A stretch of DNA of 64,000 nt from an uncultured bacterium. Its GTDB lineage: Bacteria > Patescibacteriota > Minisyncoccia > UBA6257 > 2-01-FULL-56-20. The stretch lies in NCBI GenBank assembly GCA_963696395.1, contig CAVOJZ010000002.1:6433-70432 (forward strand), given 5' to 3'. Within the stretch, counting starts at the first letter, position 1; every line of letters begins with the position of its first letter. Below, piece after piece: positions 4,213-41,744 of the stretch. The position numbers and the translations under genes are program-made. The notes beneath the pieces are model-generated. The model searched no databases and was not told the DNA's origin. It saw nothing but the letters and a program-made list of their open reading frames with translations.

Positions 4213-4225
4213 CGTCGGGGCCGGC

Positions 4226-19792: not shown

Positions 19793-19807
19793 ATGTTTAT
19801 TCTAGCA

Positions 19808-21232: not shown

Positions 21233-21235
21233 AGT

Positions 21236-21841
21236 TTAATTGCTGTCCAAATTTCTTAAATCAACCAGCGAAGAAAAATATTCGAGTGGCGAACGCTTAA
21301 TCGTGGATGTTTGGTTTGATTGCACTTCGAACGAAATGGCAGCTAATCTGATACTCGCAATCGAAATCGGATATTGCAAAGGAGCTTGCGAACCGGTATA
21401 CGAGCTGTCGTAATAGGAAAAAAGAGGCGTTGCGGAAGAAATAATGACGTTATCAATAAAATCGGTCACCACCTCGCTTGAGGTCGGATAGAGAACCGGC
21501 GTACCCGTCGGCACGATCACTCCTTTATATATCGTTGACGACGAATAAAAATATCTGACGTGCTCCGCGCTACCATTCTTATAGATGTCGCTATAAAAGG
21601 AAAAGGTTGTGGTGCCGACGGTGTCGATCGGATACGCGCCATTCCCGGACGTTTCAGCGGATTGGATCTCTTCTGTCATAATTTGGAGCGACTGGTTAAC
21701 ATCCGATTTCGCCTGTAGCTCCGATGTAACAAGGATGTTAAGTCCGGCAACGTTGTTTCCAAAATTGCTCACAACAATGACGACCGCAGCGGCGATGGCG
21801 ACGACGATTAAGATTTCGACGAGAGAAAATCCTTTGTTCAT
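21236..21841 (-). CDS. Minor pilin (prepilin-type N-terminal cleavage/methylation domain)
   Basis: MNKGFSLVEILIVVAIAAAVV. Confidence 0.7.
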   Translation of the reverse strand: MNKGFSLVEILIVVAIAAAVVIVVSNFGNNVAGLNILVTSELQAKSDVNQSLQIMTEEIQSAETSGNGAYPIDTVGTTTFSFYSDIYKNGSAEHVRYFYSSSTIYKGVIVPTGTPVLYPTSSEVVTDFIDNVIISSATPLFSYYDSSYTGSQAPLQYPISIASIRLAAISFEVQSNQTSTIKRSPLEYFSSLVDLRNLDSN

Positions 21842-23574
21842 TGGTGGATCATGGAAATAGTTGTCGACTGAGTTCCCGCGCCAACAGAAACCGTCCCGGT
21901 TGCATCGTAATAATTTGCCGCCGATGCATCGAACGAATAGGTGCCCTGCGGCAGGCTCGTAAAAAGAACCTGAGCGGGTGGAACGCAGTTTGCCGTAAAG
22001 TCGAATGCGACATTCGTGAGCTGTGGCGTAACCGACGGATCCTGTGTATTCATGAAGACCTCGTAGCGAAAATAGCGATCACCCGATAGCGAAGCCGGAA
22101 GCGTTGTGCTGGCCGTAAAATAAGTTCCCGACGTGCCGTCCGGGCCGATAAAATTCCAGGTGACATTATCGTTATTCGCCGCTACCTGAAATTCCAATGT
22201 CGTGTTTGATGGTTGAACCATCGGACTCCACGTGATGGCATTAAATGTTGAACTCGTTCCTCCAACGTCAAAGGTTTTTGAAACGAGCCAATCGGTTGTT
22301 GATGTCGAATAGCTGGAAGAGGCGTTTGCAAGAAGTTCGATAACTCCCGCCTGCGAAACATCTATGCCACCGTCTTGAGTCGCATATTGCCCCCCGGACC
22401 AGTCCGATTGTGAAAATACGGCATGATCAGTCGTGAGCGTCTGATTTACGCCCGCTTTTGAAATCGCCACGTTTGCGTTCTCTATTCCGGCACCCGATGC
22501 CGAATCAATTACCGTTGCAAGAAGCGATGGATTGGCTGCGGGCTGGATAATAAATTCGAATGCCGCCGTCGAACTTGGATTTATGGTGAGCGGACTGAAC
22601 GGAACGGTTCCGGCCAGATTTTCCGATGCATCGTTCAGCGACAGCGAATAGGTGTCCCATTCAATCGAGGAAAATGTGACGGTGCCACTCGCATTGGTAG
22701 CCGAACTCGTGGCAAATTTATAAACATTCGGGCTTGTGCCGATCAATTTTGATCCCTGCATAAAAAACGGTTCGCTTCCAACGGGTACGCACCGGTTATT
22801 GACGGTCGTAACTGCGAGAGAGCTCACGCGATCGATAGAAAATGTCACATTGCTCACGGTTTGTGATGCAACGGTGATATTCGGGAGCGTAGGATTTGGA
22901 TTGCCCGCTGCGCCCACCGGATACGTCTGTTCGTTGGAATAACCGGATTTCGAAGCGAAAATCTGATATCCCTGCGAACTGGTCGGTACGCCGATCAATT
23001 TAAGCACGCCGCTTGCATTGGTAGTGTCGGTAAGATCAACCGTCGGAGTGACCGAAGCGTTCACGATCCGTATCGTGGCGTTTTCAAGCGGAATGCCATT
23101 CGCATCAATGGCGTAAATGAAAATTGAGCCGTATACGGTCCCCTGCGCGAGCAACGACGGCGCAACGGTCGTTGTGACTTCGACCGGAACAAAATTAGTG
23201 CAAAGCGGACACGACGCTGTAATATCAACCAGTTTGTAATCTGCAACGGGCGTGCTTGAAGGCGACTGGTCATAGGGATCGTCAATATTGAGGACAGTCG
23301 TTTGCAGAATGAAAGAAAAATTGCCGTCGGCAACCGTCTGAGTCTGTGGAATTATTCCCGAAGGGATGCCGTTCACGGTTCCCACGCTCGCATAAGGCAG
23401 ATTCCGGATTGTTTCAATCTCGTTGTTGATCGCAACGGTTGCAGCCGCACGGACGCTGATATTGCCGACCGCCGTTTCAATCGAAAAGAAAACGAGATAT
23501 ACGCCGCCAAACAAGAGAGCGATGATTGCCATGCTCATGACGAGGTCTATAAGGGTGGTGCCATTTCGCGACAT
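21838..23574 (-). CDS. Large pilin-like protein (divergent prepilin N-terminus, beta-rich body)
   Basis: GTTLIDLVMSMAIIALLFGG N-terminus. 578 aa. Overlaps the upstream gene by 4 bp. Confidence 0.55.
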   Translation of the reverse strand: MSRNGTTLIDLVMSMAIIALLFGGVYLVFFSIETAVGNISVRAAATVAINNEIETIRNLPYASVGTVNGIPSGIIPQTQTVADGNFSFILQTTVLNIDDPYDQSPSSTPVADYKLVDITASCPLCTNFVPVEVTTTVAPSLLAQGTVYGSIFIYAIDANGIPLENATIRIVNASVTPTVDLTDTTNASGVLKLIGVPTSSQGYQIFASKSGYSNEQTYPVGAAGNPNPTLPNITVASQTVSNVTFSIDRVSSLAVTTVNNRCVPVGSEPFFMQGSKLIGTSPNVYKFATSSATNASGTVTFSSIEWDTYSLSLNDASENLAGTVPFSPLTINPSSTAAFEFIIQPAANPSLLATVIDSASGAGIENANVAISKAGVNQTLTTDHAVFSQSDWSGGQYATQDGGIDVSQAGVIELLANASSSYSTSTTDWLVSKTFDVGGTSSTFNAITWSPMVQPSNTTLEFQVAANNDNVTWNFIGPDGTSGTYFTASTTLPASLSGDRYFRYEVFMNTQDPSVTPQLTNVAFDFTANCVPPAQVLFTSLPQGTYSFDASAANYYDATGTVSVGAGTQSTTISMIHQ

Positions 23575-24762
23575 TTATTTGATCCCCTGTGAAATCGAAT
23601 AAATCGGTGTGATGATTGAAAGGGCGACAAAGCCGACCAGGAGACCCATCAGCAATAACATCAACGGTTCGATAAGCGACGTAAGCGAATGAAGTTTGTT
23701 ATCCACCTCTTCGTCGTAATACGTCGAAAGGTATTCCAGGTTTTCCTCAAGATTGCCGGTTGTTTCACCAATCAACACCATGCCCGAAACAAGCGGCGGG
23801 AAAAGCTTCTTGTGAGTGCCGATATACGATCCGATCTGTGCTCCGGTTCTGACTTGTTCCCCTGCGGCAAGAATAATTTTTTTATAAACCAGATTGTTGA
23901 AAGTCGCCGCGGTGATATCCAGCGCTTCAACAATTTTCACGCCGCTTTTCAAAAGCAATCCGAAAACCCGTGTAAAATTCACCATGTTTACGCCTATTGA
24001 AAGATCGGAAACTACGGGCACGATCAAAATCAATCGGTCGAGCATGTATCGCACAAATTGCACTCGTGAGGTCACAATTCTCACGGCAATAACGAAAATA
24101 ATGAGGCCGATAAAAACCTGGATCCCGTAACTCTGCAAAAAGTGGAGGGAGTTAAGCATGATGACGGTCGTGAGCGGCAAACTCACATTCATGCTCGCGA
24201 ATACCGGGATAAGCTTTGGAAAAACGTAGAAGGTTAAAAATCCGGCGACGCCGATTGTCATGCATAAGATGACAAGTGGATAAACCATCGCCGATCGTAC
24301 TTTGGTTTCAAGCTGTTTCGAGCGATCCAGCTCTCCGGCAAGGTATAGCAAGTTTTTCGCAAGCGTTCCGCTCGCCTCCCCTACCCGCACGATGTTTACA
24401 AAAAAATCGCCGAAAAGAAATTGATACTTTTGGAGTCCGTCGGCTAAAAATTTGCCGTTATTGACGTCGGCAATCAAACTGTCCAGGACCCTTTTCAGAA
24501 CCTTCGACTCAGTCTGTGATTGGATAATTTTTAATCCTTCATAGATCGGGAGGCCCGCCTTAATGACAAGCGACAAGTGGCGGGCAAAATTGATGCGATC
24601 CTGCACGGTAATGCGGTCGAACCAGTGCGAAAGCGTGCCCGGCTTCCCGATTTTCTTTATCGGCTTCGGCGGCGGTTCGGGCTTGGGTATCACTGCAATT
24701 TTTGAAACTTCGGGTTGTTCCATGATGGTTCTATTCGTGGACGACACGGAGGATTTCTTCAA
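23575..24762 (-). CDS. pilC: Type IV pilus assembly platform protein PilC (GspF family)
   Basis: 395 aa, duplicated GspF-type domains, polytopic. Confidence 0.85.
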   Translation of the reverse strand: MKKSSVSSTNRTIMEQPEVSKIAVIPKPEPPPKPIKKIGKPGTLSHWFDRITVQDRINFARHLSLVIKAGLPIYEGLKIIQSQTESKVLKRVLDSLIADVNNGKFLADGLQKYQFLFGDFFVNIVRVGEASGTLAKNLLYLAGELDRSKQLETKVRSAMVYPLVILCMTIGVAGFLTFYVFPKLIPVFASMNVSLPLTTVIMLNSLHFLQSYGIQVFIGLIIFVIAVRIVTSRVQFVRYMLDRLILIVPVVSDLSIGVNMVNFTRVFGLLLKSGVKIVEALDITAATFNNLVYKKIILAAGEQVRTGAQIGSYIGTHKKLFPPLVSGMVLIGETTGNLEENLEYLSTYYDEEVDNKLHSLTSLIEPLMLLLMGLLVGFVALSIITPIYSISQGIK

Positions 24763-25960
24763 TTGAGGTGAGTCCGAGCGATGCTTTACGCAGCGAGTCC
24801 TCGATCATCGTCGTCATTCCCTCCTTCAACGCCGCTTCTTTAATCTCCTGCGCCGTTGCCCGATTCATAATCAACTGGCGGATACTGTCGGTCACCTCAA
24901 GAACTTCGCGCACGCCGAGACGACCCTGGAACCCGCTGCCGTTGCACTCCGCACATCCCTGCGCCCTGTAAAACTTCATTTCGGGACGCAGCGTGGGAAT
25001 AAGCTCCATCAGACTTTTGAATTCGTCGAGTGAAAGCTTCCGGTCGGCTTTGCACTTTTGGCAAAGCTTTCGAACCAGTCGTTGCCCGATCGCAACATTC
25101 ACGGTTGACGCGACGAGGAATGACGGCACGCCCATATCGAGCAACCGCGGGAACGTTGTCGCCGAATCGTTCGTGTGGAGCGTGGAGAGCACCAGGTGGC
25201 CGGTTAAAGCTGCGTTCACGGCGATGCCAGCCGTTTCTTCGTCGCGGATTTCGCCGACCATCACAATATTAGGATCTTGGCGCAGGATGGAACGCAGTCC
25301 GTTTGCAAAAGTAAATCCGATTTCCGCATTCGTTTGAATCTGGGTAATGCCATCGAGCGAATACTCAATCGGATCTTCGATGGTGATGATCGAAACTTCC
25401 GAACTGTTTAATTGCTTGAGTAACGTATAGAGCGTTGTGGTTTTACCGGAACCCGTGGGACCATTCGCCAGGATCATGCCATACGGCTTCCCGACAGCGC
25501 CGACAACTTTCTTAAGGTCTGCCGGACTGAATCCTAAATCTTTCAACTCATAATTTTGCGTTCCGGCCAATACACGTAGAATGGCATTCTCTCCATAGTA
25601 GGTCGGGATGATCGAAACACGGACGTCAACGTCTCCGAAATCTTTTATTTCGATGCGAAGCCGTCCGTCCTGCGGCAACAAGTGTTCATCGGTGCGGATT
25701 CCCGAAAGCACTTTGATGCGACTGATGATCTCCGGATGTAATTTGATATCAATCTTCTTCGGGAAGACATCGTACAAAAGGCCGTCGATGCGGTACCGAA
25801 CCCGTAATGCGTCTTTGGTTGGTTCGATGTGAATGTCGGATGCGTTCGCAATGTAAGCGTACTCAACGAACAAATCGACGAGGTTAATGATGGAAATACT
25901 CTCAAGCGGTTCCTCGAGTAATTTCTCAATAATAGGAGCAAGCGATTTGATATCGCGCAT
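24731..25960 (-). CDS. pilB: Type IV pilus assembly ATPase (PilB/GspE family)
   Basis: Walker A NGPTGSGKTTTLYTLL, Asp box, His box and a CxxC tetracysteine (CQKC...CAEC). Confidence 0.85.
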   Translation of the reverse strand: MRDIKSLAPIIEKLLEEPLESISIINLVDLFVEYAYIANASDIHIEPTKDALRVRYRIDGLLYDVFPKKIDIKLHPEIISRIKVLSGIRTDEHLLPQDGRLRIEIKDFGDVDVRVSIIPTYYGENAILRVLAGTQNYELKDLGFSPADLKKVVGAVGKPYGMILANGPTGSGKTTTLYTLLKQLNSSEVSIITIEDPIEYSLDGITQIQTNAEIGFTFANGLRSILRQDPNIVMVGEIRDEETAGIAVNAALTGHLVLSTLHTNDSATTFPRLLDMGVPSFLVASTVNVAIGQRLVRKLCQKCKADRKLSLDEFKSLMELIPTLRPEMKFYRAQGCAECNGSGFQGRLGVREVLEVTDSIRQLIMNRATAQEIKEAALKEGMTTMIEDSLRKASLGLTSIEEILRVVHE

Positions 25961-26005: not shown

Positions 26006-26076
26006 TGCCGGGTCGTCTAATGGTAGGACAACGGACTCTGAATCCGTTTATCTTGGTTCGAATCCAGGCCCGGCAG
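26006..26076 (+). tRNA. tRNA-Gln (anticodon CTG), U1:A72, CCA not encoded
   Basis: TGCCGGG acceptor, D-arm GTCT/GGAC, anticodon stem ACGGA/TCCGT with loop CTCTGAA, T-arm CTTGG-TTCGAAT-CCAGG, 3' CCCGGCA-G. Confidence 0.85.
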
Positions 26077-26464
26077 CAGCAATCTGACTCAAGTCTTTTT
26101 CAGAAAAATTCAGCCGCGCTTCGCGGAGCGAAGCGTATGGTGGGGTGGGGGTAAATTCGATACGGCGGTTTTTGAGAAAGATGTTCGAGCCGAAAATTTG
26201 TTGAAGGGAGGTCTTTTTTGCAATTAGGTCGGTATTGGTTGCCGTTTCGGTAAGCAATACCGCGTTTTTTATCCATTCTCGCGTTGGTTCGAGCCAACTT
26301 CCGGCGTTCTGTTCAAGACGGGCTATTTGCTCCTCGACCGACTTCCTTTCGGAGAGTATCTTGGCACGTTTTTTAAGGTAACTTTCCCGCTCAATATCTT
26401 GCGCAAGATACGTATCGAGCAGTCGGTCGAACTTGCGGGAGAGGTCTTGCGCCTTTCCCCGCAA
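26048..26464 (-). pseudogene. Serine-recombinase-like C-terminal fragment (integrase remnant) abutting/overlapping the tRNA-Gln 3' end
   Basis: DRLLDTYLAQDIERESYLKKRAKILSERKSVEEQIARLEQ resembles the coiled-coil motif of large serine recombinases. There is no catalytic N-terminal domain, and the ORF runs into the tRNA. Confidence 0.4.
26060..26077 (+). repeat. Direct repeat copy 1 (tRNA-Gln 3' end; att-like)
   Basis: GAATCCAGGCCCGGCAGC. Confidence 0.5.
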
Positions 26465-26632
26465 CTCTTGAACGAACGCCGCCGTTTTTCTGGACTCGTC
26501 CAGGACTGGAATCGAACGAGCGGAAGGGGTCGGGGAACCGCGATCGGTTCCCCGTGTAGGAGGGCCGCGTTCTTACGCGACGGTTCGGAACCGAGGGTTC
26601 CGAAAGCGCAGACGCGAAGCGGCGAGCAGTGA

Positions 26633-26650
26633 GATTCCAGGCCCGGCAGC
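26633..26650 (+). repeat. Direct repeat copy 2 (17/18 identical to the tRNA-Gln 3' end; att-like)
   Basis: GATTCCAGGCCCGGCAGC, 573 bp downstream of copy 1. Confidence 0.5.
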
Positions 26651-26716
26651 TAGACAAAATAGCATTATTATGCTATTTTAATTTCGGTTCATTGCAAACA
26701 AAGAATTGGAGGTGTG

Positions 26717-27064
26717 ATGCACGAAATAATTGAAAATGCGACCGTGATGCTTCCCATTCGAGATATCCGCTTTGTAAATGGCGGACCATATCTCACACAA
26801 GAGACGCTCTTGGAACAACTCATTGAACTTGGCTTCCGTTTCGAGGGGGCAATAGATGAAGACGGACGTCAGTCAGCAACGCTACCGAAAGATTGGCTGT
26901 TCGATGGGGACCGGGAATCGACGCACTGGCACATCCACGACGATCGCGGCCGTCATCGAATGACGTACATCAAGAAAATTCCTTGGGGAAATCACGACTT
27001 TGTTCATTTCCTCATGATCGAACCAGCAATCCCCAACGCGAAAAGCATTTCCGACGGGTGGTAA
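26717..27064 (+). CDS. Hypothetical protein (about 115 aa), His-rich segment
   Basis: GGAGG lies 5 nt upstream of the ATG. The product has no family I recognise (HWHIHDDRGRH...H..H). Confidence 0.45.
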   Translation: MHEIIENATVMLPIRDIRFVNGGPYLTQETLLEQLIELGFRFEGAIDEDGRQSATLPKDWLFDGDRESTHWHIHDDRGRHRMTYIKKIPWGNHDFVHFLMIEPAIPNAKSISDGW

Positions 27065-27152
27065 CCAACCGAAAGGCGCACGCCTAGCTCACACTAGAAA
27101 CGGCGCCTATTTCTTTATTTAAAATCGTTCGAACATCGTCCGTTCCGACAGC

Positions 27153-27181
27153 TTGACAGAATATTAATATAATGTTATCAT
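27153..27181 (+). promoter_or_regulatory. Sigma70-like promoter (TTGACA-17-TATCAT) preceded by a repeated motif
   Basis: cagcTTGACAga at 27153-27158. The upstream GTTCGAACATCGTCCGTTCCGAC element is repeated at 28228-28250. Confidence 0.4.
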
Positions 27182-27200
27182 CTCCTCAGCGAAGTGAAGC

Positions 27201-27479
27201 ATGCAAATGATCTTAAAGAGGGATTGGGACGCTATTGACGCAACCGATCCGAAGAACAACACCTACACCACGATTCCTGCTGGAACACACGACGTGGAGA
27301 GAATTCCTTGCCCAACCGGACATGACTGCAATTGGCTCGTACTCAAGGGAACGAAAATCGGAGCAAGCGAAGGATCGTGGCGCCAATGGGCACCCGGTCA
27401 AATCGTTGATGATTCAGATCGCCCAAATTTCGGAAAAGTGATCGACTGGGAAGAAGCCACCGTTGTCATCGTCGATTAA
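27201..27479 (+). CDS. Hypothetical protein (92 aa)
   Basis: ORF downstream of the promoter. Weak SD. Confidence 0.4.
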   Translation: MQMILKRDWDAIDATDPKNNTYTTIPAGTHDVERIPCPTGHDCNWLVLKGTKIGASEGSWRQWAPGQIVDDSDRPNFGKVIDWEEATVVIVD

Positions 27480-27601
27480 TTAACCCGCCAAATGGAAACC
27501 CATTGCTTGGCGGGTTTCTATTTTACGCAAAACTTATTTTCTCCATCTCCAACCCCACCTTCATCCAATCCACGGTTCTAAACGTGACCAGTAGGGGCAG
27601 C

Positions 27602-27630
27602 TTGACAGATAGCAATTTTGGATGTAAAAT
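27602..27630 (+). promoter_or_regulatory. Sigma70-like promoter TTGACA-17-TAAAAT
   Basis: cagcTTGACAgat...TAAAAT. AGGAG and ATG 27649 follow. Confidence 0.45.
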
Positions 27631-27648
27631 ATGCTTAGGAGATTTATC

Positions 27649-27873
27649 ATGCCAAGGAAAATACATTCGGTGGTTTTAGGCGTGGGAGCTATTACGGCTT
27701 TTTCTCTCGCTTTTCTTATGGTGAGAGATATGCGCTCCCAAGCTGGCGTCGGCCTCTTTGAGCCAACCCCCTATGACTCAACGGAAATCACGATAGCTCG
27801 GATCGGATTGGGGTTGATAGTTTTCAGCGTTATCATCTGGCCGTGGCATCGCAAAACAAAAAACAGTCTCTGA
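27649..27873 (+). CDS. Small membrane protein (about 74 aa, two TM helices)
   Basis: AGGAG lies 8 nt upstream. Product MPRKIHSVVLGVGAITAFSLAFLMV...GLGLIVFSVIIWPW. Confidence 0.45.
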   Translation: MPRKIHSVVLGVGAITAFSLAFLMVRDMRSQAGVGLFEPTPYDSTEITIARIGLGLIVFSVIIWPWHRKTKNSL

Positions 27874-27912
27874 CTCAGGTGCCCTATCTGGCACTTCCCT
27901 AGCGGAGGGGTT

Positions 27913-28101
27913 ATGTTCACGCATAAGAAATTGAAAAAGTTAGAAAAACGTGTGAAAAAGCTGCTCGCCGCCATCGGGCGATTCGTTAACCCAAATGATG
28001 CGATTCGGATCGACCGTCCCCTATCCCACGGAGAAACATTCAAAGTTTATCTGTGCCTGAGTTCAAACGAACCCTTCGTCTTAGGCCGCGCAAGGACATA
28101 G
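27913..28101 (+). CDS. Small basic hypothetical protein (62 aa)
   Basis: GGAGGGG lies 4 nt upstream of the ATG. The N-terminus is Lys-rich. Confidence 0.4.
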   Translation: MFTHKKLKKLEKRVKKLLAAIGRFVNPNDAIRIDRPLSHGETFKVYLCLSSNEPFVLGRART

Positions 28102-28117
28102 GTAGCAGCGCTCATCG

Positions 28118-28876
28118 ATGCAATCACAAACGTCCGCACTCGCAAGCGAGATTCAATACCATTCGATAAGATTTACTAAGCCCCGTTGTTTATTGTGGCT
28201 TTTGTTTTATTCAAAACAGTTCGAACATCCCCCAATCCGACCGTTTACTTTTCGGCTCAAATACGCTATAAGAAAACCAGAACTTCACACGAGGTGCTCA
28301 ACGAATATCAAACTGCTCCTGCCGAAAGCGGCCGTTTTCATCGAGCCGCACGATAGAGTTTTCTTTATCGGCGGTCCTGTACTTGGCGGGGGTGACTGGC
28401 AATGCGAAGCCATCCGCCACATTGCGATGCATGCTCCAGGGTCGTATGTAGTTTGCCCCTGTCGCTACGAATCCGACCATCCGCTTTACCGTTTTTCCAT
28501 CCAAGGCGCGGACGAAGCTTGCTGGATATCAAAAGGATTTAAGCCATTCCTCAGCCAAACGCTCTGGGAACGGTTTTATCTTGACGTGGCGAACGAACAA
28601 GGATCGATCATCTTTTGGTTAGGAAAGGAAAGCACGATACATCCCCGGCCGCCGAAGACCGAACCGTACGCGAGGGACACTTATGGCGAGATCGGCGAGT
28701 GGCGGGCGCGGATGTTTTACGACAACGCGCGCGTGGTTGTCGGAGCAAGCCCAGAATTTCCGGGGCTGTCGGTGATCAAAAAGAATTTCGATGCGATGCC
28801 CGGGCCTTCATTCCCTATTCACGAAACTCTCCTTGATACCGTCAAAGCAGCCGTGGCCGTCGCGAACAAGAGATAG
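28118..28876 (+). CDS. Hypothetical protein with Gly-rich Rossmann-like segment (VFFIGGPVLGGGDWQ); start codon uncertain
   Basis: Long ORF. A promoter-like repeat copy lies inside its 5' part (28213-28282), so the true start may be downstream (non-ATG) or the repeat is coding. Confidence 0.4.
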   Translation: MQSQTSALASEIQYHSIRFTKPRCLLWLLFYSKQFEHPPIRPFTFRLKYAIRKPELHTRCSTNIKLLLPKAAVFIEPHDRVFFIGGPVLGGGDWQCEAIRHIAMHAPGSYVVCPCRYESDHPLYRFSIQGADEACWISKGFKPFLSQTLWERFYLDVANEQGSIIFWLGKESTIHPRPPKTEPYARDTYGEIGEWRARMFYDNARVVVGASPEFPGLSVIKKNFDAMPGPSFPIHETLLDTVKAAVAVANKR

Positions 28877-29040
28877 TTACCAAGTATTACGCCGATCCAA
28901 GAGGATCGGCTTTTTATATGAGACTCGCCTTTTCCATCTCCAGTCCGGCACTAGACCGAGGAACACAGCTCTTGACAGAAGCTATATTATTGGTTACTGT
29001 TTATTTAGCACCGAAATTCAAGCTCGTTGGAGAAACCTTT

Positions 29041-29259
29041 ATGAAACGACTCTATTTTTCGATTGACGGCTGCCAATTCGTGTCTGACCCGCTCACTCTT
29101 GAAAAGGCTCGCGAGGTAGAAAGTGTGCTGAAGACATGTGGGATCGTCTGCCGCTCTGCAGATGGCAACCTCACGGTGGTCGTGACAAGCGAAGCGGAAC
29201 GAGCGGCTGTCATGGTCGAAAGCTTCCTCCGGTTGGGGAAAGACAGCATCGGCCAGTAA
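29041..29259 (+). CDS. Small hypothetical protein (72 aa)
   Basis: GGAGA lies 7 nt upstream of the ATG. TTGACA at 28972. A terminator follows. Confidence 0.4.
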   Translation: MKRLYFSIDGCQFVSDPLTLEKAREVESVLKTCGIVCRSADGNLTVVVTSEAERAAVMVESFLRLGKDSIGQ

Positions 29260-29276
29260 GCAATTTACTCCTATAA

Positions 29277-29303
29277 GCCCCGCGTTCTTGCGGGGTTTTT
29301 CTT
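29277..29303 (+). terminator. Intrinsic terminator
   Basis: AGCCCCGC-gttctt-GCGGGG followed by TTTTT. Confidence 0.6.
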
Positions 29304-29368
29304 ATGTTCAGCTTGTGCTTTCTTATATCTTTGTTAGTATTGAGAAAGTTTTTATATGGGGGTGAACT

Positions 29369-30355
29369 TTGTCAAAACGAAAATCCAGCACAGAGCGAGC
29401 CTTCGATTCCATTTTAGAAATCGTTGGTACGTTGCAACCGGAATTTGAAGAAATTTTTCGAACTCTTGTGGTTACGACCCGTTCTTTCATCTCTTTCTGC
29501 AATTCGGAAAGTGATTCGGAGCGAAAACGGCAGATGCAAGATGAAATTGCAGATGTATTTGTAAAAAATGTCAGAATCAGCAAAAAGCTTGAAGATGTCA
29601 TCCGGCCAGGCCTTTTGAGACTCGAGAGCGAGATCCGACGATTTGAAACGCAACGCGATGAATCGCGGCGCGTCACACGTAACCTCGCGAGGAGAAACAG
29701 AAAAATTCGGGCGAAAGGGCGCCAGGATGTTCTCCTGACTAAATTGCTCAACAAAAAAGCTTTTGCCGAGGAATTTCTTTCTTTGCTTGCAGGTCCCCAC
29801 CGCAGAGGCTTTGAACAATCTCTGTCACATGGCTTTTCGGCTTATTGCCTCCTGGATCTGAAAAAGTTCAAACAGATCAACGACCGAACTCGAAGTCATG
29901 AGATTGGAGACAAAGTGCTCAAACACATTGAATCCTGCATGGTGGAGAGCATCCGTACCGAGCACGAGGGCGACATCCTGGGACGGGTGGGAGGAGACGA
30001 ATTTGGCGTTCTCATGCAGGGCCTCTCGGGCCGTGAACCCATTTTCGAAATTCTTCGGCGCTTCCGGCGTGCCGTGAGAGATCATGGTTGGATCGACCGC
30101 CAGAAACTTCCCGTAACCTTGAAAGAAATGGTTGATGTGGACGCCGGCGTCATCTACTGGAAAAATATTGGCTCTTTGCCGGCAAAGCAATCTTCTGCGA
30201 AGCTTCGGACAGAGATCGAATTTTACGGAGATGAAGCAATGTACCGAGCAAAGAATTTTAGTAGTCACGGGGCAGTGATCTGCTGGGAGGGCGTGTTAAA
30301 AAACGGTAAATTTCGCCTTCTGAACAAAGAGACAAGCGGACCTGAATTATTGTGA
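29369..30355 (+). CDS. GGDEF-domain protein (putative diguanylate cyclase) with N-terminal helical/coiled-coil region
   Basis: LLDLKKFKQINDRTRSHEIGDKVLK...GRVGGDEFGVLM...YRAKNFSS are canonical GGDEF-domain blocks. TTG start. No RxxD I-site. Confidence 0.8.
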   Translation: MSKRKSSTERAFDSILEIVGTLQPEFEEIFRTLVVTTRSFISFCNSESDSERKRQMQDEIADVFVKNVRISKKLEDVIRPGLLRLESEIRRFETQRDESRRVTRNLARRNRKIRAKGRQDVLLTKLLNKKAFAEEFLSLLAGPHRRGFEQSLSHGFSAYCLLDLKKFKQINDRTRSHEIGDKVLKHIESCMVESIRTEHEGDILGRVGGDEFGVLMQGLSGREPIFEILRRFRRAVRDHGWIDRQKLPVTLKEMVDVDAGVIYWKNIGSLPAKQSSAKLRTEIEFYGDEAMYRAKNFSSHGAVICWEGVLKNGKFRLLNKETSGPELL

Positions 30356-30382
30356 GCGCGTCGCATGACGCGCTTTTTTTTA
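30355..30382 (+). terminator. Intrinsic terminator
   Basis: AGCGCGTC-gcat-GACGCGCT followed by T8. Confidence 0.65.
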
Positions 30383-30409
30383 TCGGAAAAATGCGCTATA
30401 CTAGGCGAC

Positions 30410-31870
30410 ATGCTCGGCGATAAAGTGATTATCCGCTTTTCCGGAGTCTCGTTCGAATATGGACGGAAGCCAATCCTCCACGAGGCGGATTTTTCTGTGC
30501 GCGAAGGATCGAAGATAACACTCATGGGCCAAAACGGCGCAGGCAAGACAACCATATTCCAATTGATCACGGGCGTGCTGAAGCCGGAGGACGGGGCGAT
30601 CCACATTGACCGTGGGCTTACCATGGCGATAAGCCGGCAAGTGATCCCCCGCGACCAGATGGATCTCACGGTTCAGGAATTTTTTGAAAAAGCTTTCCCG
30701 AAAAAAGTTTACGACATTGCCCCGCGGATCAACAAAATCCTCGAGGTGGTTCACCTCACAGCCGCGCTCGATAAGCCGCTTCGTTCATTTTCCGGTGGCC
30801 AACATGCACGATTGCTGCTTGCGCAAGCGCTCATCCAAAATCCCGACATTCTTCTCCTCGACGAGCCGACCAACAACCTGGACAAACAAGGGATAGCCCA
30901 CCTTACGCAGTTCCTGATCGATTACCCGAAAACGTGTATTGTTATTTCGCACGACGCAGGATTTTTGAACTCCTTCACCCACGGCGTTCTTTATCTCGAT
31001 AGCTTCACAAAAAAAGTTGAGCAGTATACCGGCGATTATTTCGACGTCGTGGAGGAAATCAAGAAACGCCTGGAACGGGAACGCATGAAGAATGTCCGTC
31101 TTGAAAAAGACATCCAGCACCGAAAAGACCAGGCAAACTTTTTCGCACAAAAAGGCGGCCATATGCGCGACGTTGCGCGAAAAATGAACGAGAAGATTGA
31201 GGAGCTCGAAGGCGATATCGTTGAAACTCGCCAGGAAGACAGAACAATTCGGCAATTTGCGATCCCCTGCCAGGCCGACATCAGCGGCCAGATTCTTAAA
31301 CTGGAATCTGTTTCGATTATGAATCTGAAAACGCACAAGCCGACAGTCAAAAAAATTAAGGTGGTGACGCTGAAGAAAAAAGAGCGGCTTTTGTTGTCCG
31401 GTCCGAACGGCATCGGTAAGACGACGCTTCTCGAGAAGCTCGCAACCGGCCACGCAAAAGGTGAGCATATCACACCCGGCATCAAGATCAGTTATTACCG
31501 CCAGGATTTTTCCACGCTCGATTTTGATAAAACCGTATACGACACCCTTGCAGACGCCATGAAAGATGGAACCGACCAAAACCTCCGTTCCACTGCCGCC
31601 GGATTTTTGCTCGATGCAGAGATATTGAAAATGCGGATTGGATCGCTCTCCGAGGGTCAAAAAGGTCTTGTCGCATTCGCCGCAATATCACTTGAGCGGC
31701 CGGGGCTTTTAATCCTCGACGAGCCGACAAATCACATCAATTTTCGCCACATCCCCATAATCGCCAAAGCACTCGATATGTACGAAGGTGCGATGGTGCT
31801 CGTGAGCCACGTTCCCGAATTTGTGAAACAGATTAAAATCGACCAGGTCCTGGATCTCGAAGCTATTTAA
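30410..31870 (+). CDS. ABC-F family ATPase (two ABC cassettes, no TMD)
   Basis: Two Walker A motifs (GQNGAGKTT; GPNGIGKTT), two signature motifs (SGGQ; SEGQ), an inter-domain linker and no membrane domain. Confidence 0.85.
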   Translation: MLGDKVIIRFSGVSFEYGRKPILHEADFSVREGSKITLMGQNGAGKTTIFQLITGVLKPEDGAIHIDRGLTMAISRQVIPRDQMDLTVQEFFEKAFPKKVYDIAPRINKILEVVHLTAALDKPLRSFSGGQHARLLLAQALIQNPDILLLDEPTNNLDKQGIAHLTQFLIDYPKTCIVISHDAGFLNSFTHGVLYLDSFTKKVEQYTGDYFDVVEEIKKRLERERMKNVRLEKDIQHRKDQANFFAQKGGHMRDVARKMNEKIEELEGDIVETRQEDRTIRQFAIPCQADISGQILKLESVSIMNLKTHKPTVKKIKVVTLKKKERLLLSGPNGIGKTTLLEKLATGHAKGEHITPGIKISYYRQDFSTLDFDKTVYDTLADAMKDGTDQNLRSTAAGFLLDAEILKMRIGSLSEGQKGLVAFAAISLERPGLLILDEPTNHINFRHIPIIAKALDMYEGAMVLVSHVPEFVKQIKIDQVLDLEAI

Positions 31871-32885
31871 AGAGACCGGCAAGCCTCGAAAGCAGGTTAT
31901 AATTTGAGGGATATCCCGCAAGTTCCATATAGCCGACGCCGCGCACTTTTTTCCTGCCAATCATCCCCTGCACCTCAATCGGCCCCTCCCAATAATTAAT
32001 AGTTCCAAAAATCATTTCCCCGTCACGGACAAGCGCTGACGTTTTGAGTTTTATTTTTTTTCCGGGAACGGCGATCGTCCACGCGAGCGGATAACTCACA
32101 TTCGTAACTTTGCTTTTCCATGCTTTTTTCCCCTCTTTGAATTGTGCAGTCCGATAATCCGCCGCAGCTCCATGCGCATTAAGCACGTCGATAATGTAAT
32201 CTTTTCCTTTTCCGTCGTCATAGGCAACGCACATCAGGTCGGTGCCGTCATCAAGCTGGATCGAGAACCATGTCCATTTATCCTTTGCATACGGCGTATT
32301 GGCCCACTGATGGTCCATCCACGATTTTCCGGAAACCGAAATCCATTTTTTTCCTATCCTGATTTTCCCGGTTGTCTCGAAATTGGTCAATGAATAATAG
32401 AAACTTTCCCGACGGCGAACCGTGATAAACCCTTTGCCGCCTTCGAGCATGGGTCGTTTCTTCGAAACAAGAACAAGATCGATGCGATCGGTTTTTATAT
32501 GAAATGTTCCGGGTTTAATTTCTGCAATTTCGTACGTCCCTTTTGAAACCGCGACCGGATCTATGTAGCGAGCGTAAAACAGCGCTTTCTTAAAACTGTC
32601 GCGGGAGGCAATAGAAATGTTCTGAATGTCTTTATAATTTTTCCGCCGGCCGATATCCGTGAGTGCGGCGTGGGCGAACGTAACATGGCGGCCTGCCTTG
32701 GCTTGTCCAAAAAAATTCTTCAAATACGGTATTTCGACTTTCGCCAGATCGGCGCGGAAAAGACAATCCATAAATGAATACTGGCGACCCTTCTCGTCGG
32801 TAAGATGACCGTTAAAATACCACCATTCAATGATGGTATCGTGAGGATTGGTATCTTCCGGCAATTGTATCCGACGGCTTTCCAT
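31863..32885 (-). CDS. AttH/CrtC-like lipocalin-fold protein (hydroxyneurosporene synthase-like)
   Basis: NPHDTIIEWWYFNGHLTDEKGRQYSF is the N-terminal signature of the AttH/CrtC family. Confidence 0.65.
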   Translation of the reverse strand: MESRRIQLPEDTNPHDTIIEWWYFNGHLTDEKGRQYSFMDCLFRADLAKVEIPYLKNFFGQAKAGRHVTFAHAALTDIGRRKNYKDIQNISIASRDSFKKALFYARYIDPVAVSKGTYEIAEIKPGTFHIKTDRIDLVLVSKKRPMLEGGKGFITVRRRESFYYSLTNFETTGKIRIGKKWISVSGKSWMDHQWANTPYAKDKWTWFSIQLDDGTDLMCVAYDDGKGKDYIIDVLNAHGAAADYRTAQFKEGKKAWKSKVTNVSYPLAWTIAVPGKKIKLKTSALVRDGEMIFGTINYWEGPIEVQGMIGRKKVRGVGYMELAGYPSNYNLLSRLAGLFK

Positions 32886-32900
32886 GAAATCGCTATAGCG

Positions 32901-34136
32901 CTAACGACGACGACCGGAACGATAAGGAGGTCGCTGGCCCGGCCTACGATAGCCTCGTTGAGGGCGGCGTTGTTCCCGTTCCATCACAGGTGGAGGAAAA
33001 GACGAAGGTGGCGGAGGCGGCAGTACCGGCGTGCGGGTCACTGGCAACGTTGATCGCGTGAGGCGTTCAATGGCCTGGACGTCGCGGCGCTCATCCGGGC
33101 GGGCAAACGAAATGGCGTGGCCCTTGCCTCCGGCGCGGCCGGTACGGCCGATGCGATGAACGTAGTCCTCGGCAACCGTTGGAAGATCGTAATTGATGAC
33201 AAGTTCGATGTTGTGCACGTCAATGCCCCGCGCCGCGATATCGGTTGCAGCAAGCACGCGGTATTTGCCGTTCTTGAATCCATCCAAAGCTTCGCGGCGT
33301 TGGTTAAGCGAGCGGTTCGAATGCATCTCGGCCGCGGTATGTCCAAGAGAACGAAGGTGCGCCGCGATTTTCTTAGCTGCAAATTTTGTCCTCGAAAAAA
33401 TCAGAACCGATCCACGATATTCCTGTAAAATCTTTTCCAGCAATCTCGGCTTTTCCGGCTGAGTTACGATAAAAAGTTCCTGTGTCACGTCTTTGGCTGC
33501 GGTTCCGGGGCGGGCAATTTCCACACGCACCGGAAGCTTTAAAAATGCCCGGGCCATGGAAACGATTGATTCCGGCATCGTTGCCGAAAAAAGCATCGTC
33601 TGCCGCTCGTGAGGCAGCACCGCAAGAATTCGCTTGAGCTGCGGCGCAAAGCCCATGTCGAGCATGCGATCGGCTTCATCGAGAACGACGACACTTACTG
33701 CTTTCAAATTTACGGTTTTCTGTTCCAGATGATCAATAAGCCTTCCGGGCGTTGCGAGGAGAATCTGAGGCTTTCGATCGAGATCTCGCAGTTGCTTTCT
33801 GATCGGCTCACCGCCGATAAGCACTGCGGTTTTGATTCCCAAAAATCCTCCAACACTGCGAAGCGATTCATCAACCTGCACCGCAAGCTCCCGCGTCGGC
33901 AAAAGAACAAGCGCACGACGACGGCTGTCGGCCAAAATACTCTGGATTAAAGGAATCCCGAATGCGAGCGTTTTCCCCGTGCCGGTTTGAGCGATGCCCA
34001 TCATATCTTTCCCTTCGATCGCCTGCGGAATCGATTGCTGTTGAATCGGCGTCGGCTCCGTAAAGTGAAGCTTATCGAGAACCGAAAGAATATTCGGTGC
34101 GATGCCAAGGCCGCGGAAACTTGATTGATTGTTCAT
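32901..34136 (-). CDS. DEAD-box ATP-dependent RNA helicase
   Basis: AQTGTGKT, PTRELA, DEAD, SAT and HRIGRTGRAG motifs. C-terminal RG-rich tail. Confidence 0.9.
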   Translation of the reverse strand: MNNQSSFRGLGIAPNILSVLDKLHFTEPTPIQQQSIPQAIEGKDMMGIAQTGTGKTLAFGIPLIQSILADSRRRALVLLPTRELAVQVDESLRSVGGFLGIKTAVLIGGEPIRKQLRDLDRKPQILLATPGRLIDHLEQKTVNLKAVSVVVLDEADRMLDMGFAPQLKRILAVLPHERQTMLFSATMPESIVSMARAFLKLPVRVEIARPGTAAKDVTQELFIVTQPEKPRLLEKILQEYRGSVLIFSRTKFAAKKIAAHLRSLGHTAAEMHSNRSLNQRREALDGFKNGKYRVLAATDIAARGIDVHNIELVINYDLPTVAEDYVHRIGRTGRAGGKGHAISFARPDERRDVQAIERLTRSTLPVTRTPVLPPPPPSSFPPPVMEREQRRPQRGYRRPGQRPPYRSGRRR

Positions 34137-34546
34137 TCGGATAAATAGGCGTCGAGCGTCTTATGGATATCGCCGACCAGCTTTCGCAAGGACACGCGCC
34201 GCTTCCAAAACGTATTATTTTCGGAAAGGTCGGCTTTGCGAATGAGGCTGAGTTCGCGGATAGCAACAAAACGGTCGTGCCCAAGGTCGTCGGTCGTCCG
34301 GACATCAAGATCTTTGATGCCCTGGTGAATTTGCTTCAAGACCGCATACTTTGGAGAAATTTCTGCGGCGCGGCTCCCCTTTCCCGTGCTATTAAAGAAG
34401 ATGGCAAAGGACGGCGTCGATTCAACGAACTCAACAAAGTGATGTAATGAAACAAAAAACGTGAAGCCCTCCGGAGCTTCACGGACTTTTTTAACTTTTT
34501 GATCGAGGCCCGTTTTTATCTTCTCTGCACTCTGTACTGGCGACAT
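34133..34546 (-). CDS. Hypothetical protein
   Basis: ORF 34133..34660 trimmed to M39 to avoid overlap with cyoE. No recognisable motifs. Confidence 0.35.
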   Translation of the reverse strand: MSPVQSAEKIKTGLDQKVKKVREAPEGFTFFVSLHHFVEFVESTPSFAIFFNSTGKGSRAAEISPKYAVLKQIHQGIKDLDVRTTDDLGHDRFVAIRELSLIRKADLSENNTFWKRRVSLRKLVGDIHKTLDAYLSE

Positions 34547-34578
34547 GCCCCAATGATAACACGAATCAGGGATAATAG

Positions 34579-35472
34579 CTATGCGATTGCCCCAATCGCA
34601 ATCGTTGCAAAAAGTATGACCATCACCGCAAGCGAAAAGAAAAACATTCTCTTTGCCCATTGGGTATTCGCCTGTGGATCATTAACGGTAAAACCGCTCG
34701 CGCTCATGGCAATCCAAGCGAGTCCAAGGACAAGCGTGATACCAAGATAGACTGCACCGGTATAGCCAAAAACAGTGAGAAGTGAGGCGGTAAATACAAA
34801 AGCGACAATATCGAGCAGCGTCGCGATTTTTGTTTTTTGCATTCCCCGCTTTATCGGGAAAACAGGGATTCCCGCGGCATCATAATCACCGACTCTCCGG
34901 ATCGCAATTGCATAGAAATGCGGGAGTTGCCACAACGCAAGCATAAAAAAGAGGATCACGGCCGCATCATCAATGCGACCGCTCACCGCACAATATCCGA
35001 CAACCGGCGGCGTAGCACCGGCAATCGCTCCGATAACAGTCCCGAAAATCGAACGGCGTTTAAACCATAAGCTGTACATGAATACATAAAAGAAAAATCC
35101 GAGTGCCGCCGCGCCCACGGTCGGCAAATTTGTAAAAAGAAAAAGGATGCCGAATCCGGCGATGCCGAGGACAGTGCCGAATGAGAGTGCTCCCGAACCC
35201 GAGACGCGACCCGTGACAATCGCACGATTTCTGGTTCGATCCATATGCGCATCTATGTCGCGGTCAATATAGTTGTTGAATACGCATCCGGACGCCATCA
35301 CGAGGCATATGCCCGCAATGGTTGCGACAAGTAACGGGAGGGCGATCATCGGCTGTAATCCCTGCCTTCCCGCAACAACACCTTCGGCAAGCATAAACCC
35401 GGCAATAACCGTGACGAGATTGCCGAACACCAGTCCGGATTTGGTTAATTCGTAATATGGTTTGATTGCCAT
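34579..35472 (-). CDS. cyoE: Protoheme IX farnesyltransferase (heme O synthase)
   Basis: UbiA-family polytopic protein immediately downstream of cyoABCD. Confidence 0.85.
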   Translation of the reverse strand: MAIKPYYELTKSGLVFGNLVTVIAGFMLAEGVVAGRQGLQPMIALPLLVATIAGICLVMASGCVFNNYIDRDIDAHMDRTRNRAIVTGRVSGSGALSFGTVLGIAGFGILFLFTNLPTVGAAALGFFFYVFMYSLWFKRRSIFGTVIGAIAGATPPVVGYCAVSGRIDDAAVILFFMLALWQLPHFYAIAIRRVGDYDAAGIPVFPIKRGMQKTKIATLLDIVAFVFTASLLTVFGYTGAVYLGITLVLGLAWIAMSASGFTVNDPQANTQWAKRMFFFSLAVMVILFATIAIGAIA

Positions 35473-35473
35473 T

Positions 35474-35839
35474 CTAAAAACCTCCTTGTTGTTGCTGCAT
35501 GTATTGGTCGACTTGGGCCGGCGTCATGTTGTAATTCAGGTGATCCATGATCCAGATGGATCCGATAACAATGATAAGGACGAGCCCTATTGTGGCAAGG
35601 AAAATTCCAAGCTGTGAACGCCCTCCCTCTTTTGCATTAAGATGCAGAAAGAAAATGAGTTGGACGATGAGCTGAATCACGGCAAGCGCAAGAATCGTGG
35701 GGATGAGAACCGCATGGGATATTACCGAGTGCTCGGAACTTACGTGGATTTGCACCACAAGATATGCGGCGAGGGTAAGCAAAATCGAAAGCACATAACC
35801 GACGACGTACGATATGGTGGAATGATTATTGTTTTCCAT
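35474..35839 (-). CDS. cyoD: Cytochrome o quinol oxidase subunit IV
   Basis: 121 aa, 3 TM, position in operon. Confidence 0.7.
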   Translation of the reverse strand: MENNNHSTISYVVGYVLSILLTLAAYLVVQIHVSSEHSVISHAVLIPTILALAVIQLIVQLIFFLHLNAKEGGRSQLGIFLATIGLVLIIVIGSIWIMDHLNYNMTPAQVDQYMQQQQGGF

Positions 35840-35846
35840 GTCAGTG

Positions 35847-36419
35847 TTACAACGCGATGCCCATCAGATACACGATGGTAAATATAAATATCCAGATCAG
35901 ATCCAGGAAATGCCAAAAAATCGCAAGGCGATCCAGTTTTGAGATAGTTGATGGCGTGAGTCCCCGAACTTTGATTTGCACCATGGCGACAAGCATCCAC
36001 AACAGGCCGACCGCAATATGTAAGCCGTGAGTACCAACGAGGGTGAAGAAGGCGGAAAGAAATGCATTCGCCTGCGGGCCATTGCCGCCAGCGACCAATC
36101 GTGAAAATTCATTAAGCTCGAGAACCAGGAATGTAGCCCCAAACGCCATCGTGACGCCGAACCACGCCATCGCCTGATTGATTTTTCCACGATGGACGGC
36201 GATTGTCGCGAGACCGCAGGTAAAACTGCTCGTGAGTAAAATCAGGGTTTCCGTAAGCGCACCGTTCAGACTAAACAATGCATCGCCCGAAGGACCGCCG
36301 AAAGTATTATTCCGCAGGACCGCGTACGCCGCGAAAAGCGCCGCGAAAATAACAAGGTCGGTCATCAAATAGATCCAGAACCCGAAAATATATTTATCGT
36401 TTGTCTCGGGATTTTTCAT
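35847..36419 (-). CDS. cyoC: Cytochrome o quinol oxidase subunit III
   Basis: 190 aa, 5 TM, heme-copper oxidase subunit III-like. Confidence 0.85.
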   Translation of the reverse strand: MKNPETNDKYIFGFWIYLMTDLVIFAALFAAYAVLRNNTFGGPSGDALFSLNGALTETLILLTSSFTCGLATIAVHRGKINQAMAWFGVTMAFGATFLVLELNEFSRLVAGGNGPQANAFLSAFFTLVGTHGLHIAVGLLWMLVAMVQIKVRGLTPSTISKLDRLAIFWHFLDLIWIFIFTIVYLMGIAL

Positions 36420-38407: not shown

Positions 38408-38413
38408 TGGTCG

Positions 38414-39247: not shown

Positions 39248-39291
39248 GAAATTATTCTGAGTATTCTTTTTATTATACTATAGGGGAAACC

Positions 39292-39660
39292 ATGCAAACG
39301 AAAACATACCAACGGCTCGCCGATTTGATCATGATCTTCCATTTCTTCTGGACGCTCGTGATCTTTGGCGGCGCCGTTTTTATGGTTCTCGACCCGTCAT
39401 ACGCACTCACCCAAATTGCCGTTCTCTCAATAACGCTTCTCGCGAGCGTCCCATTCGGCGGGCTCTGCCCCGTCACAACACTCGAAAATCGTTTCCGCCA
39501 AAAAGTTGATCCTTCATATGAAAATCACGGATCGTTTATGACCACGTATACCAATAAAATATTCGGAACGCAGTTCCGCGTACGCGATGTAAATATCACA
39601 ATCGCAGTGCTTTACGTTCTCTGCTACAGTTATGCGATTGCCGCCCTGGTACGGAAATAA
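39292..39660 (+). CDS. Hypothetical membrane protein (122 aa)
   Basis: Several TM helices. Divergent from the cyo operon. Confidence 0.5.
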   Translation: MQTKTYQRLADLIMIFHFFWTLVIFGGAVFMVLDPSYALTQIAVLSITLLASVPFGGLCPVTTLENRFRQKVDPSYENHGSFMTTYTNKIFGTQFRVRDVNITIAVLYVLCYSYAIAALVRK

Positions 39661-39721
39661 AAAAAACGCTACAATACCGGCATAGCTCTTTACCATATTC
39701 TTGAAAACAAGGAGGGGTTTC

Positions 39722-40447: not shown

Positions 40448-40528
40448 TTTTCTGGGCTGCTTTTTTTGTCCTCATGTTATACAACGCTCCACTTGCAAAA
40501 GCTCGCAGTTAAACGTTAAATCAAGGGT

Positions 40529-41686: not shown

Positions 41687-41744
41687 AAAAAACCCCCGCA
41701 GGACGGGAGTTTTTTCCAACAATGAGTATACCTACCAAGCTTGC

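Follow-up and report, generated by a model that had tools for sequence, protein, structure and literature searches.

The stretch of DNA analysed here, 64,000 nucleotides of contig CAVOJZ010000002.1 in assembly GCA_963696395.1 from an uncultured bacterium (the window), carries at positions 29369-30355, on the plus strand, a complete open reading frame (ORF) for a 328-residue protein that consists of a helical stalk and a GGDEF domain of the diguanylate-cyclase type. We examined this cyclase gene, its predicted product and its place among its neighbours, following up an earlier reading made from the letters of the window (the original prediction), which had seen the gene as part of an acquired signalling or effector module beside a mobile-element scar. 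The gene is a real, unusually divergent diguanylate cyclase gene and an ordinary though fast-evolving signalling gene. It goes with a housekeeping gene next to it and not with the remnant of a mobile element nearby. The main result is a correction of the earlier reading: we find a resident, rapidly diverging accessory gene and no mobile cargo or defence module.

The ORF begins with a TTG codon, while public gene callers place the start at M56 (P0001, 273 residues). The 328-residue form is more likely than the M56 form, since the homologues closest to it (P0067, P0122 and P0150, members of a subfamily described below) have N-termini that align with residues 1-55, and since GGGGGTGA, a Shine-Dalgarno-like sequence, stands before the TTG. 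An exact-sequence look-up of the 328-residue product gave no match. As originally predicted, the gene has its own terminators on both sides. Upstream, a terminator-like hairpin at 29275-29298 (+; 10-bp stem with 6 GC pairs, then a T-run) closes the preceding orphan ORF and separates the cyclase from the orphan genes transcriptionally. Downstream, a second hairpin at 30354-30375 (+; 9-bp stem, then T8) overlaps the cyclase stop codon. Between these two terminators the cyclase gene forms a monocistronic unit. It is followed by a conserved neighbour, the gene for an ABC-F family ATPase (30410-31870, +; two Pfam ABC_tran matches). The longest ABC-F ORF begins at 30365, inside the cyclase terminator hairpin; because all relatives align from residue 15-16, translation probably starts at ATG 30410. 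A TATACT box stands 8 nt upstream of this ATG.

Membership of the cyclase gene product in the GGDEF family is shown by two profile models. PF00990 scores 53.8 bits (E=2.5e-14) against a cut-off of 23.8, with only model positions 6-113 of 161 aligned, and TIGR00254 scores 63.5 bits (E=1.9e-17) against a cut-off of 37.4 over residues 123-296. The domain occupies residues ~118-300 (29720-30268, +). Its signature, G208-G-D-E-F212, lies at 29990-30004 (+) and is preceded by R206 (R206-V-G208-G-D-E-F212). The metal-binding Asp, the catalytic Lys and the sugar-face Asn are found in D163-L-K-K-F-K168-Q-I-N171-D172 (29855-29884, +). The residue that faces the Watson-Crick edge of the base, equivalent to Ser348 of GacA, is the canonical Asp (Asp181; 29909-29911, +). 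We placed it by alignment to PA0861 (5xgb; 'sheigd' against 'ghaagd'), N171 and D181 being separated with a one-residue insertion relative to the solved enzymes. Residues D163, K168, N171, D172, D181, R206, G208, G209, E211, F212 and K295 are invariant in an alignment of 50 sequences and match the solved diguanylate cyclases. As judged from this alignment, the catalytic and guanine-recognition residues of the window protein are intact.

Other parts of the domain depart from the usual pattern. At the position of the inhibitory site (I-site), five residues before the GG, the sequence reads H199-E-G-D202 (29963-29974, +); the Arg is missing, which bears out the earlier observation that no RxxD is present. 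The near-universal NRR is replaced by N128-K129-K130 (29750-29758, +; aligned to DosC, 4zve). A Trp-containing strand, D-A-G-V-I-Y-W, stands in place of the usual S-I-G-V-A, and insertions of 1, 3 and 7 residues distinguish the domain from solved GGDEF domains. At the C-terminal end the common motif is A-K-x-x-G-R-N, whose phosphate-binding Lys and Arg we take to be K442 and R446 of PleD; here K295 is kept, GRN is replaced by N-F-S-S-H-G and the Arg is absent. The domain had been called canonical, and this description is right for the RVGGDEF and D-L-K-K-F-K-Q-I-N-D motifs and wrong for the NKK replacement, the missing GRN arginine and the three insertions.

The selectivity residue bears directly on the product. 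Canonical enzymes have Asp at the GacA 348 position, and this Asp drives GTP specificity; Hypr GGDEF proteins have Ser there (Ser348 in GacA), and the S348D mutation turns GacA into a pure diguanylate cyclase (PMC6456294). Because the selectivity residue of the window protein is Asp181 and not the Hypr Ser, cyclic di-GMP (c-di-GMP) is its expected product. The non-canonical cyclic dinucleotide that had been considered earlier is not indicated, since the specificity residue, once checked, is the one found in GTP-specific enzymes.

We built an AlphaFold model of the cyclase on the 50-sequence alignment, with a predicted local distance difference test (pLDDT) score of 86 and a predicted template modelling score of 0.73. 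The N-terminal region is modelled as a helical hairpin or stalk (29387-29722, +) of two long helices, residues 7-45 and 50-118 (pLDDT 77-96), the second of which runs directly into the GGDEF fold. No sensor family among the Pfam and TIGRFAM/NCBIfam models matched this region, in line with the earlier description of a helical N-terminus with no recognisable sensor. The stalk is presumed from the model to be a dimerisation and regulatory element. After the GGDEF domain the model adds an extra C-terminal beta-hairpin (residues 302-317; 30272-30319, +) that ends in a G-K-F-R-L-L tail, and a similar 'G.F.L' tail is present in several subfamily members (P0067 and P0150, and more loosely P0122). A Foldseek search of the PDB returned GGDEF-domain proteins, nearly all of them diguanylate cyclases, for 50 of the 50 matches listed, with E-values of 1e-7 to 1e-12 for the GGDEF domain. 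The top match is SiaD (7e6g; E 7.4e-12, template modelling scores 0.52/0.62), followed by coiled-coil-GGDEF structures of a GCN4-WspR fusion, PadC and DgcB. The confidence of the model and these matches both identify the GGDEF (palm-like) fold.

In its sequence the protein is isolated. An exhaustive phmmer search of 1.84 billion representatives (E<=0.001) gave 49,405 matches, presumably GGDEF proteins, and the sole match above 50% identity is the gene's own shorter call. The best non-self match, P0067, reaches 33% identity (E 1.4e-18) and lies on a contig only 1 kb long. A word-indexed homologue search gave generic GGDEF matches only; with a subfamily profile it added P0216 alone. It was through the phmmer search that the subfamily came to light. 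Around the window protein we infer a loose, fast-diverging subfamily of stalk-GGDEF proteins of ~240-320 residues. Its members are P0067, P0114, P0122, P0150 and P0169, with P0173 and P0216 as looser or possible ones (236-320 residues; 26-33% identity to the window protein). They have a helical N-terminus and a GGDEF domain in common with the window protein. They also carry traits absent from ordinary cyclases, namely the 'D[IV]G[VI]xxW' strand, 'ADxLMYxxK' and the loss of NRR. The window protein, P0067, P0122, P0114, P0150 and P0169 are mutual best matches, ahead of the canonical GGDEF proteins included for comparison. We rejected as members 18 further top phmmer matches, all of them canonical NRR/SxG/GRN enzymes, and P0225, an ordinary GGDEF protein in a non-CPR context (CPR, Candidate Phyla Radiation).

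One member stands among recognisable c-di-GMP components. P0122 (L085) has three stand-alone PilZ proteins within 6 kb upstream, scoring 27-30 bits against a Pfam cut-off of 22.5, and its neighbours comprise PilZ, extracytoplasmic function sigma factor and ClpB-like genes. The genome in question, GCA_051986135.1, does not look like Patescibacteria. The PilZ genes near P0122 tie the subfamily to ordinary c-di-GMP signalling. In L085 the segment 2262-6077, upstream of P0122, encodes a response regulator as well as the three PilZ proteins.

Genomic context in relatives is what decides between residency and the scar-linked reading. In L083/L084, two Joint Genome Institute metagenome contigs, P0150 directly adjoins the ABC-F gene. 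Identity to the window in these contigs is 91% for ABC-F, 92% for the DEAD helicase, 83% for a gene of 137 residues, 77% for CyoB, 71% for DUF2784, 60% for CyoA, 56% for UbiA and 31% for a PAPS-reductase-like gene. The block is collinear with the window, except that the cyo genes lie on the opposite side and the cyclase is head-to-head with ABC-F. In L088/L089, P0114 lies ~1 kb from homologues of window 40529-41686 and of the DEAD helicase. The distance from P0114 to tRNA-Gln and the paired pilB and pilC genes (88% and 76% identical to the window) is 5.4 kb. The orphan ORFs of the window (26714-29259) are all missing from L083/L084 and L088/L089, and we found them only in L001, a contig of the same strain. 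Because its homologues sit beside ABC-F and the DEAD helicase without the orphan genes, the cyclase would belong to the edge of the conserved block and not to the island, and its family appears to have been at the locus before the orphan genes. The placement of the cyclase in the orphan-gene island is not upheld by these loci. Conserved synteny in relatives, named at the outset, jointly with further c-di-GMP genes elsewhere in the genome, as an observation that would speak against an acquired module, is present in part, as homologues of ~30% identity in the syntenic L083/L084 and L088/L089.

The same comparison (window 30365-45445) gave further observations on the block. Most relatives (L002, L007, L093, L095-L098) have the order obg, ABC-F, msrB, while in the window, L083/L084 and L092 the ABC-F gene has moved next to the DEAD helicase and obg abuts msrB; this move is a shared rearrangement that marks a subclade. 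The gene of 137 residues (34136-34546, -) is 83% identical in L083 and has no Pfam match; a naive call of longest ORFs misses it, because a longer ORF on the plus strand (34163-34447) masks it. Window 34579-39247 (-) encodes a UbiA/CyoE-like prenyltransferase and a cyoABCD-like (COX1/COX3-type) oxidase operon. This operon is also found in L083/L084 and L093, but L092, which is just as close, lacks it at the matching position, so that the operon has the look of a movable block.

Upstream of the cyclase lies the scar. A tRNA-Gln(CTG) gene at 26006-26077 (+) is followed at 26633-26650 (+) by an 18-nt direct repeat of its 3' end, with a 17/18 match to 26060-26077 (0.01 such matches expected by chance). 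Within the 573-bp remnant between tRNA-Gln and repeat, a recombinase-like ORF fragment at 26048-26464 (-) has a weak match (3e-4) to a PHROG integrase family, over the C-terminal part of that family. A PDB search with this fragment gave coiled-coil noise only, and its identification comes from this single weak PHROG match. The mobile-element scar itself is thereby borne out. The repeat pair encloses 573 bp only, and the cyclase lies 2.7 kb beyond it. We looked for a third copy of the attachment-site-like (att-like) repeat with up to 3 mismatches and found none, and none that brackets the cyclase. As no further copy exists, the scar does not enclose the cyclase. We rejected the cyclase as cargo of an element integrated at the tRNA site: it is not between att repeats with an integrase, and its composition is native. 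The position of tRNA-Gln beside pilB is also kept in L002 and L088. A type IV pilus or type II secretion system (T2SS)-like operon with pseudopilins, PilC and PilB occupies window 19343-25960 (-).

The orphan ORFs between scar and cyclase (26714-29259, +) encode 116, 92, 80, 62, 252 and 113 residues and are lineage-specific; searches against PDB, Pfam, PADLOC and PHROG gave no usable match. The 252-residue orphan (28118-28876, +) has a 28.5%-identical stretch in a 462-kb uncultured phage, LR756500.1 (tblastn, E 7e-10), and a weak match in the Patescibacteria contig L093 (14482-14889). Its single-sequence AlphaFold model (pLDDT 33) is uninformative.

The window as a whole is a join of two unrelated sequences. 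G+C content is 71-74% from base 1 to ~6000 and ~49% in the remainder, and the cyclase lies inside this 58-kb low-GC part. The ORF at 5308-6753 (-) spans the join and is an artificial fusion of a TraG/HerA-like N-terminus and a transketolase C-terminus. The high-GC part, 1-6020, encodes transaldolase- and transketolase-like proteins. The host of the 58-kb part is, from the identity of its proteins, assigned to the Patescibacteria (CPR), of the Paceibacteria/Minisyncoccia type, because the window ABC-F protein has its best matches in metagenome-assembled genomes (MAGs) of this type: among 80 species-representative MAGs, every one of them labelled Patescibacteria, Parcubacteria or the like, the best reaches 76% identity. 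The CPR-like host of the original prediction is thus confirmed. Tetranucleotide composition of 26-31 kb is no outlier (z<=1.5) and is native. The sole outlier of the contig is 40-43 kb (z=3.6), with low-complexity repeats as the probable cause; a Thr/Ser-rich DUF11 surface protein is encoded there, at 41745-43142 (-). A response regulator gene lies at 55859-56254. L001, a Logan contig of 4743 nt from run ERR11563597, matches window 26129-30871 at 100% identity. An independent public run has thus yielded the same strain, with both the island and the cyclase. L001 is the only contig of P0001 and, being of the same strain, carries no comparative information.

We favour, as probable though far from assured, an active, stalk-dimerised diguanylate cyclase that lacks an I-site and makes c-di-GMP, encoded by a resident accessory gene of a Patescibacteria subclade. 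The protein would be a soluble stand-alone cyclase that dimerises by its stalk in the manner of SiaD, WspR and DgcB. Pairing would set two GGDEF half-sites face to face, where two GTP would be condensed to c-di-GMP. With no I-site there would be no product feedback, and output would be set by transcription or by an effector of the stalk register, for example a partner protein like SiaC. The nearby type IV pilus machinery is an obvious candidate target of this output. As to origin, the gene would have bordered the ABC-F/DEAD-helicase block, on the downstream side of pilB and tRNA-Gln, since before the split from the nearest sampled relatives. It would be a resident accessory gene and not cargo of the integrase remnant or of the orphan ORFs.

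A number of observations weigh against this interpretation, and some concern the protein itself. One NRR arginine stacks on the base across the dimer, and this cross-dimer Arg is found in 94% of predicted diguanylate cyclases (PMC6456294). With NKK the window protein lacks it, the feature being frequent and not obligatory. Together with the loss of the GRN arginine, the NKK replacement could make cyclase activity weak; as far as the residues tell, neither deviation points to another substrate. Within the subfamily, P0150 (L083 8001-8954) has a broken signature (R-G-G-K-R-S-D-E-F), and Asn takes the place of Asp181; P0150 is probably no active cyclase, and its hidden Markov model (HMM) score of 76 bits is the lowest of the set. 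P0114 lacks the equivalent of Lys168. Because P0150 and P0114 have lost catalytic residues, the subfamily may be under relaxed constraint.

Other points on this side come from the relatives. L092, as close to the window as L083 by its ABC-F (90%), DEAD helicase (90.5%) and Obg (92%), lacks a GGDEF gene; what lies upstream of its ABC-F gene is a znuABC-like operon. In an HMM scan of 160 ABC-F-anchored loci (most of the ~2.2 Mb fetched), a single one, L135, has a GGDEF ORF. The cyclase gene is accessory, rare in relatives and plainly dispensable. At ~30% identity, moreover, an orthologue and repeated replacement by related cassettes cannot be told apart. Low identity alone is no evidence of replacement, because identity falls to 31-60% for other genes of the block too.

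The remaining points come from a census of the 58 kb. A Pfam scan of all ORFs >=60 residues in 6-64 kb found no EAL, HD/HD-GYP or PilZ domain, as had been stated earlier for this DNA, and no T2SSE_N/MshEN. A search of the window for divergent PilZ proteins, with an ad hoc HMM of those in L085, found none. An Rfam search found no c-di-GMP or cyclic GMP-AMP (cGAMP) riboswitch even at E<=5, and two tRNAs only at gathering score. PilB (24731-25960), at 409 residues, has the T2SSE domain only and lacks the N-terminal T2SSE_N/MshEN, the usual c-di-GMP-binding module of such pilus ATPases. Since the 58 kb contain no receptor, phosphodiesterase or riboswitch, a working c-di-GMP circuit is not demonstrated within them.

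Several of these points also fit the first alternative, a relic or non-catalytic GGDEF protein. Here a c-di-GMP network would be in the course of being lost in genome reduction, with the gene left to drift under relaxed selection or to be re-used as a scaffold or binding protein that makes little or no c-di-GMP. The lack of partner components in the 58 kb, the extreme divergence (33% to the best non-self match among 1.84 billion representatives, E 1.4e-18), the changes at NRR and GRN, the degenerate motif and lowest score of the positional homologue P0150 and the absence of the gene from the equally close L092 would all fit. However, at ~70% divergence overall the window copy has kept all its first-shell catalytic residues and an unbroken GGDEF signature, and this argues for purifying selection on catalysis. 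The ORF is also full-length, with a Shine-Dalgarno-like sequence and its own terminator, and the identical sequence was recovered from a second sample (L001, 100% over 4743 nt). Without RxxD, the protein cannot serve as a receptor by way of the I-site. We therefore consider a relic unlikely, if still worth keeping in mind.

A second alternative concerns the origin of the gene and leaves its function as a cyclase unchanged. Stalk-GGDEF genes of one mobile pool would, as exchangeable cassettes at a recombination hotspot, have been inserted or replaced repeatedly in the variable region from tRNA-Gln to ABC-F/DEAD helicase, and the homologues in relatives would be xenologues. A GGDEF gene lies directly beside ABC-F in three Patescibacteria lineages (window 29369-31870, L083 6472-8954, L135 9395-11734) in three arrangements: tandem upstream in the window, divergent upstream in L083/L084 and convergent downstream in L135, where the GGDEF protein, encoded between ABC-F and Obg, is of the canonical type. 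This adjacency could reflect coincidence, a hotspot or a link in function. Repeated insertion or replacement would also agree with the ~30% identity of the cyclase next to neighbours at 91-92%, with the tRNA-linked att-like repeat and recombinase-like fragment of the window, with an IS1595 transposase fragment that adjoins P0114 and with flanking genes that differ in every genome. Yet neither an intact mobility gene nor a repeat brackets the cyclase (the att-like pair encloses 573 bp and lies 2.7 kb upstream), composition is native, and other genes of the block have low identities as well (PAPS-reductase-like 31%, UbiA 56%, CyoA 60%). We rate this origin as distinctly less likely than a relic.

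Doubtful to a further degree is a more far-reaching proposal: a fast-evolving stalk-GGDEF lineage, so far mostly from Patescibacteria, that has lost the I-site, NRR and GRN, has gained the Trp strand and the C-terminal hairpin, and may be retained next to the ABC-F translation-factor gene because it forms a minimal signalling circuit with an unconventional receptor or product. Such a circuit of one cyclase with no PilZ, EAL, HD-GYP or riboswitch could control type IV pili or translation in an episymbiont, for example.

We hold to be very improbable the earlier reading, in which the cyclase belongs to an acquired module, for signalling or as a defence-type effector, and produces a non-canonical cyclic dinucleotide. 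A lone cyclase in a reduced genome beside a scar and orphan ORFs, the Lys in place of the cross-dimer Arg that biases towards guanine, and the homologue of orphan 28118-28876 in an uncultured huge phage (E 7e-10) speak for it, but the selectivity position is Asp181 and not Ser, PADLOC-DB 2.0 gave only coiled-coil matches at E~0.01 for the cyclase, generic P-loop matches for ABC-F and none for the orphan ORFs, the homologous loci in L083/L084, L088/L089, L090 and L172 share no candidate effector with the window, composition is native, terminators isolate the gene from the orphan ORFs, and GGDEF proteins of phages resemble it no more than those of ordinary bacteria do (28-32% identity).

The mere presence of diguanylate cyclase genes in such genomes is not new: an earlier count of these genes covered MAGs of ultra-small bacteria and archaea, Patescibacteria among them (PMC9938205). 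If the resident cyclase that we favour is active, at least one lineage of small Patescibacteria would have kept c-di-GMP signalling in stripped-down form, as a lone cyclase that looks unregulated and has no receptor recognisable in its vicinity. This would be a compact system in which to look for non-canonical c-di-GMP receptors, and would allow a test of messenger control over host-attachment pili.

Among known systems the closest in architecture is SiaD of Pseudomonas aeruginosa (PDB 7E6G), in which a long helical stalk likewise continues directly into the GGDEF domain and the polypeptide has no sensor domain. The SiaD model NF038266 aligns with residues 84-250 at 59 bits against an equivalog cut-off of 290 (24% identity), and as judged by this score the window protein is no SiaD orthologue. 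Pfam scans of the window ORFs found no siaABC-like genes near the cyclase. SiaD is described as working by a stalk mechanism in which it dimerises through its long stalks (PMC8457831). SiaD, for which allosteric inhibition is described, appears to keep an inhibitory site, unlike the window protein with its HEGD. Activation by a partner, as in SiaD, is for the window protein an analogy only. WspR, DgcB and PleD have in common with the window protein the GGDEF fold and signature, the metal-binding Asp, the Asn/Asp guanine pair and dimerisation through an N-terminal helix. In contrast to them, the window protein has no receiver or input domain and no RxxD, carries NKK, lacks the GRN arginine, and adds the Trp strand and the extra C-terminal hairpin. 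With the Hypr GGDEF proteins GacA and Bd0367, which make 3',3'-cGAMP, it shares the GGDEF (not GGEEF) signature, the fold and a non-Arg residue at the cross-dimer position, whereas the Ser that defines them at the Watson-Crick-face position is Asp in the window protein.

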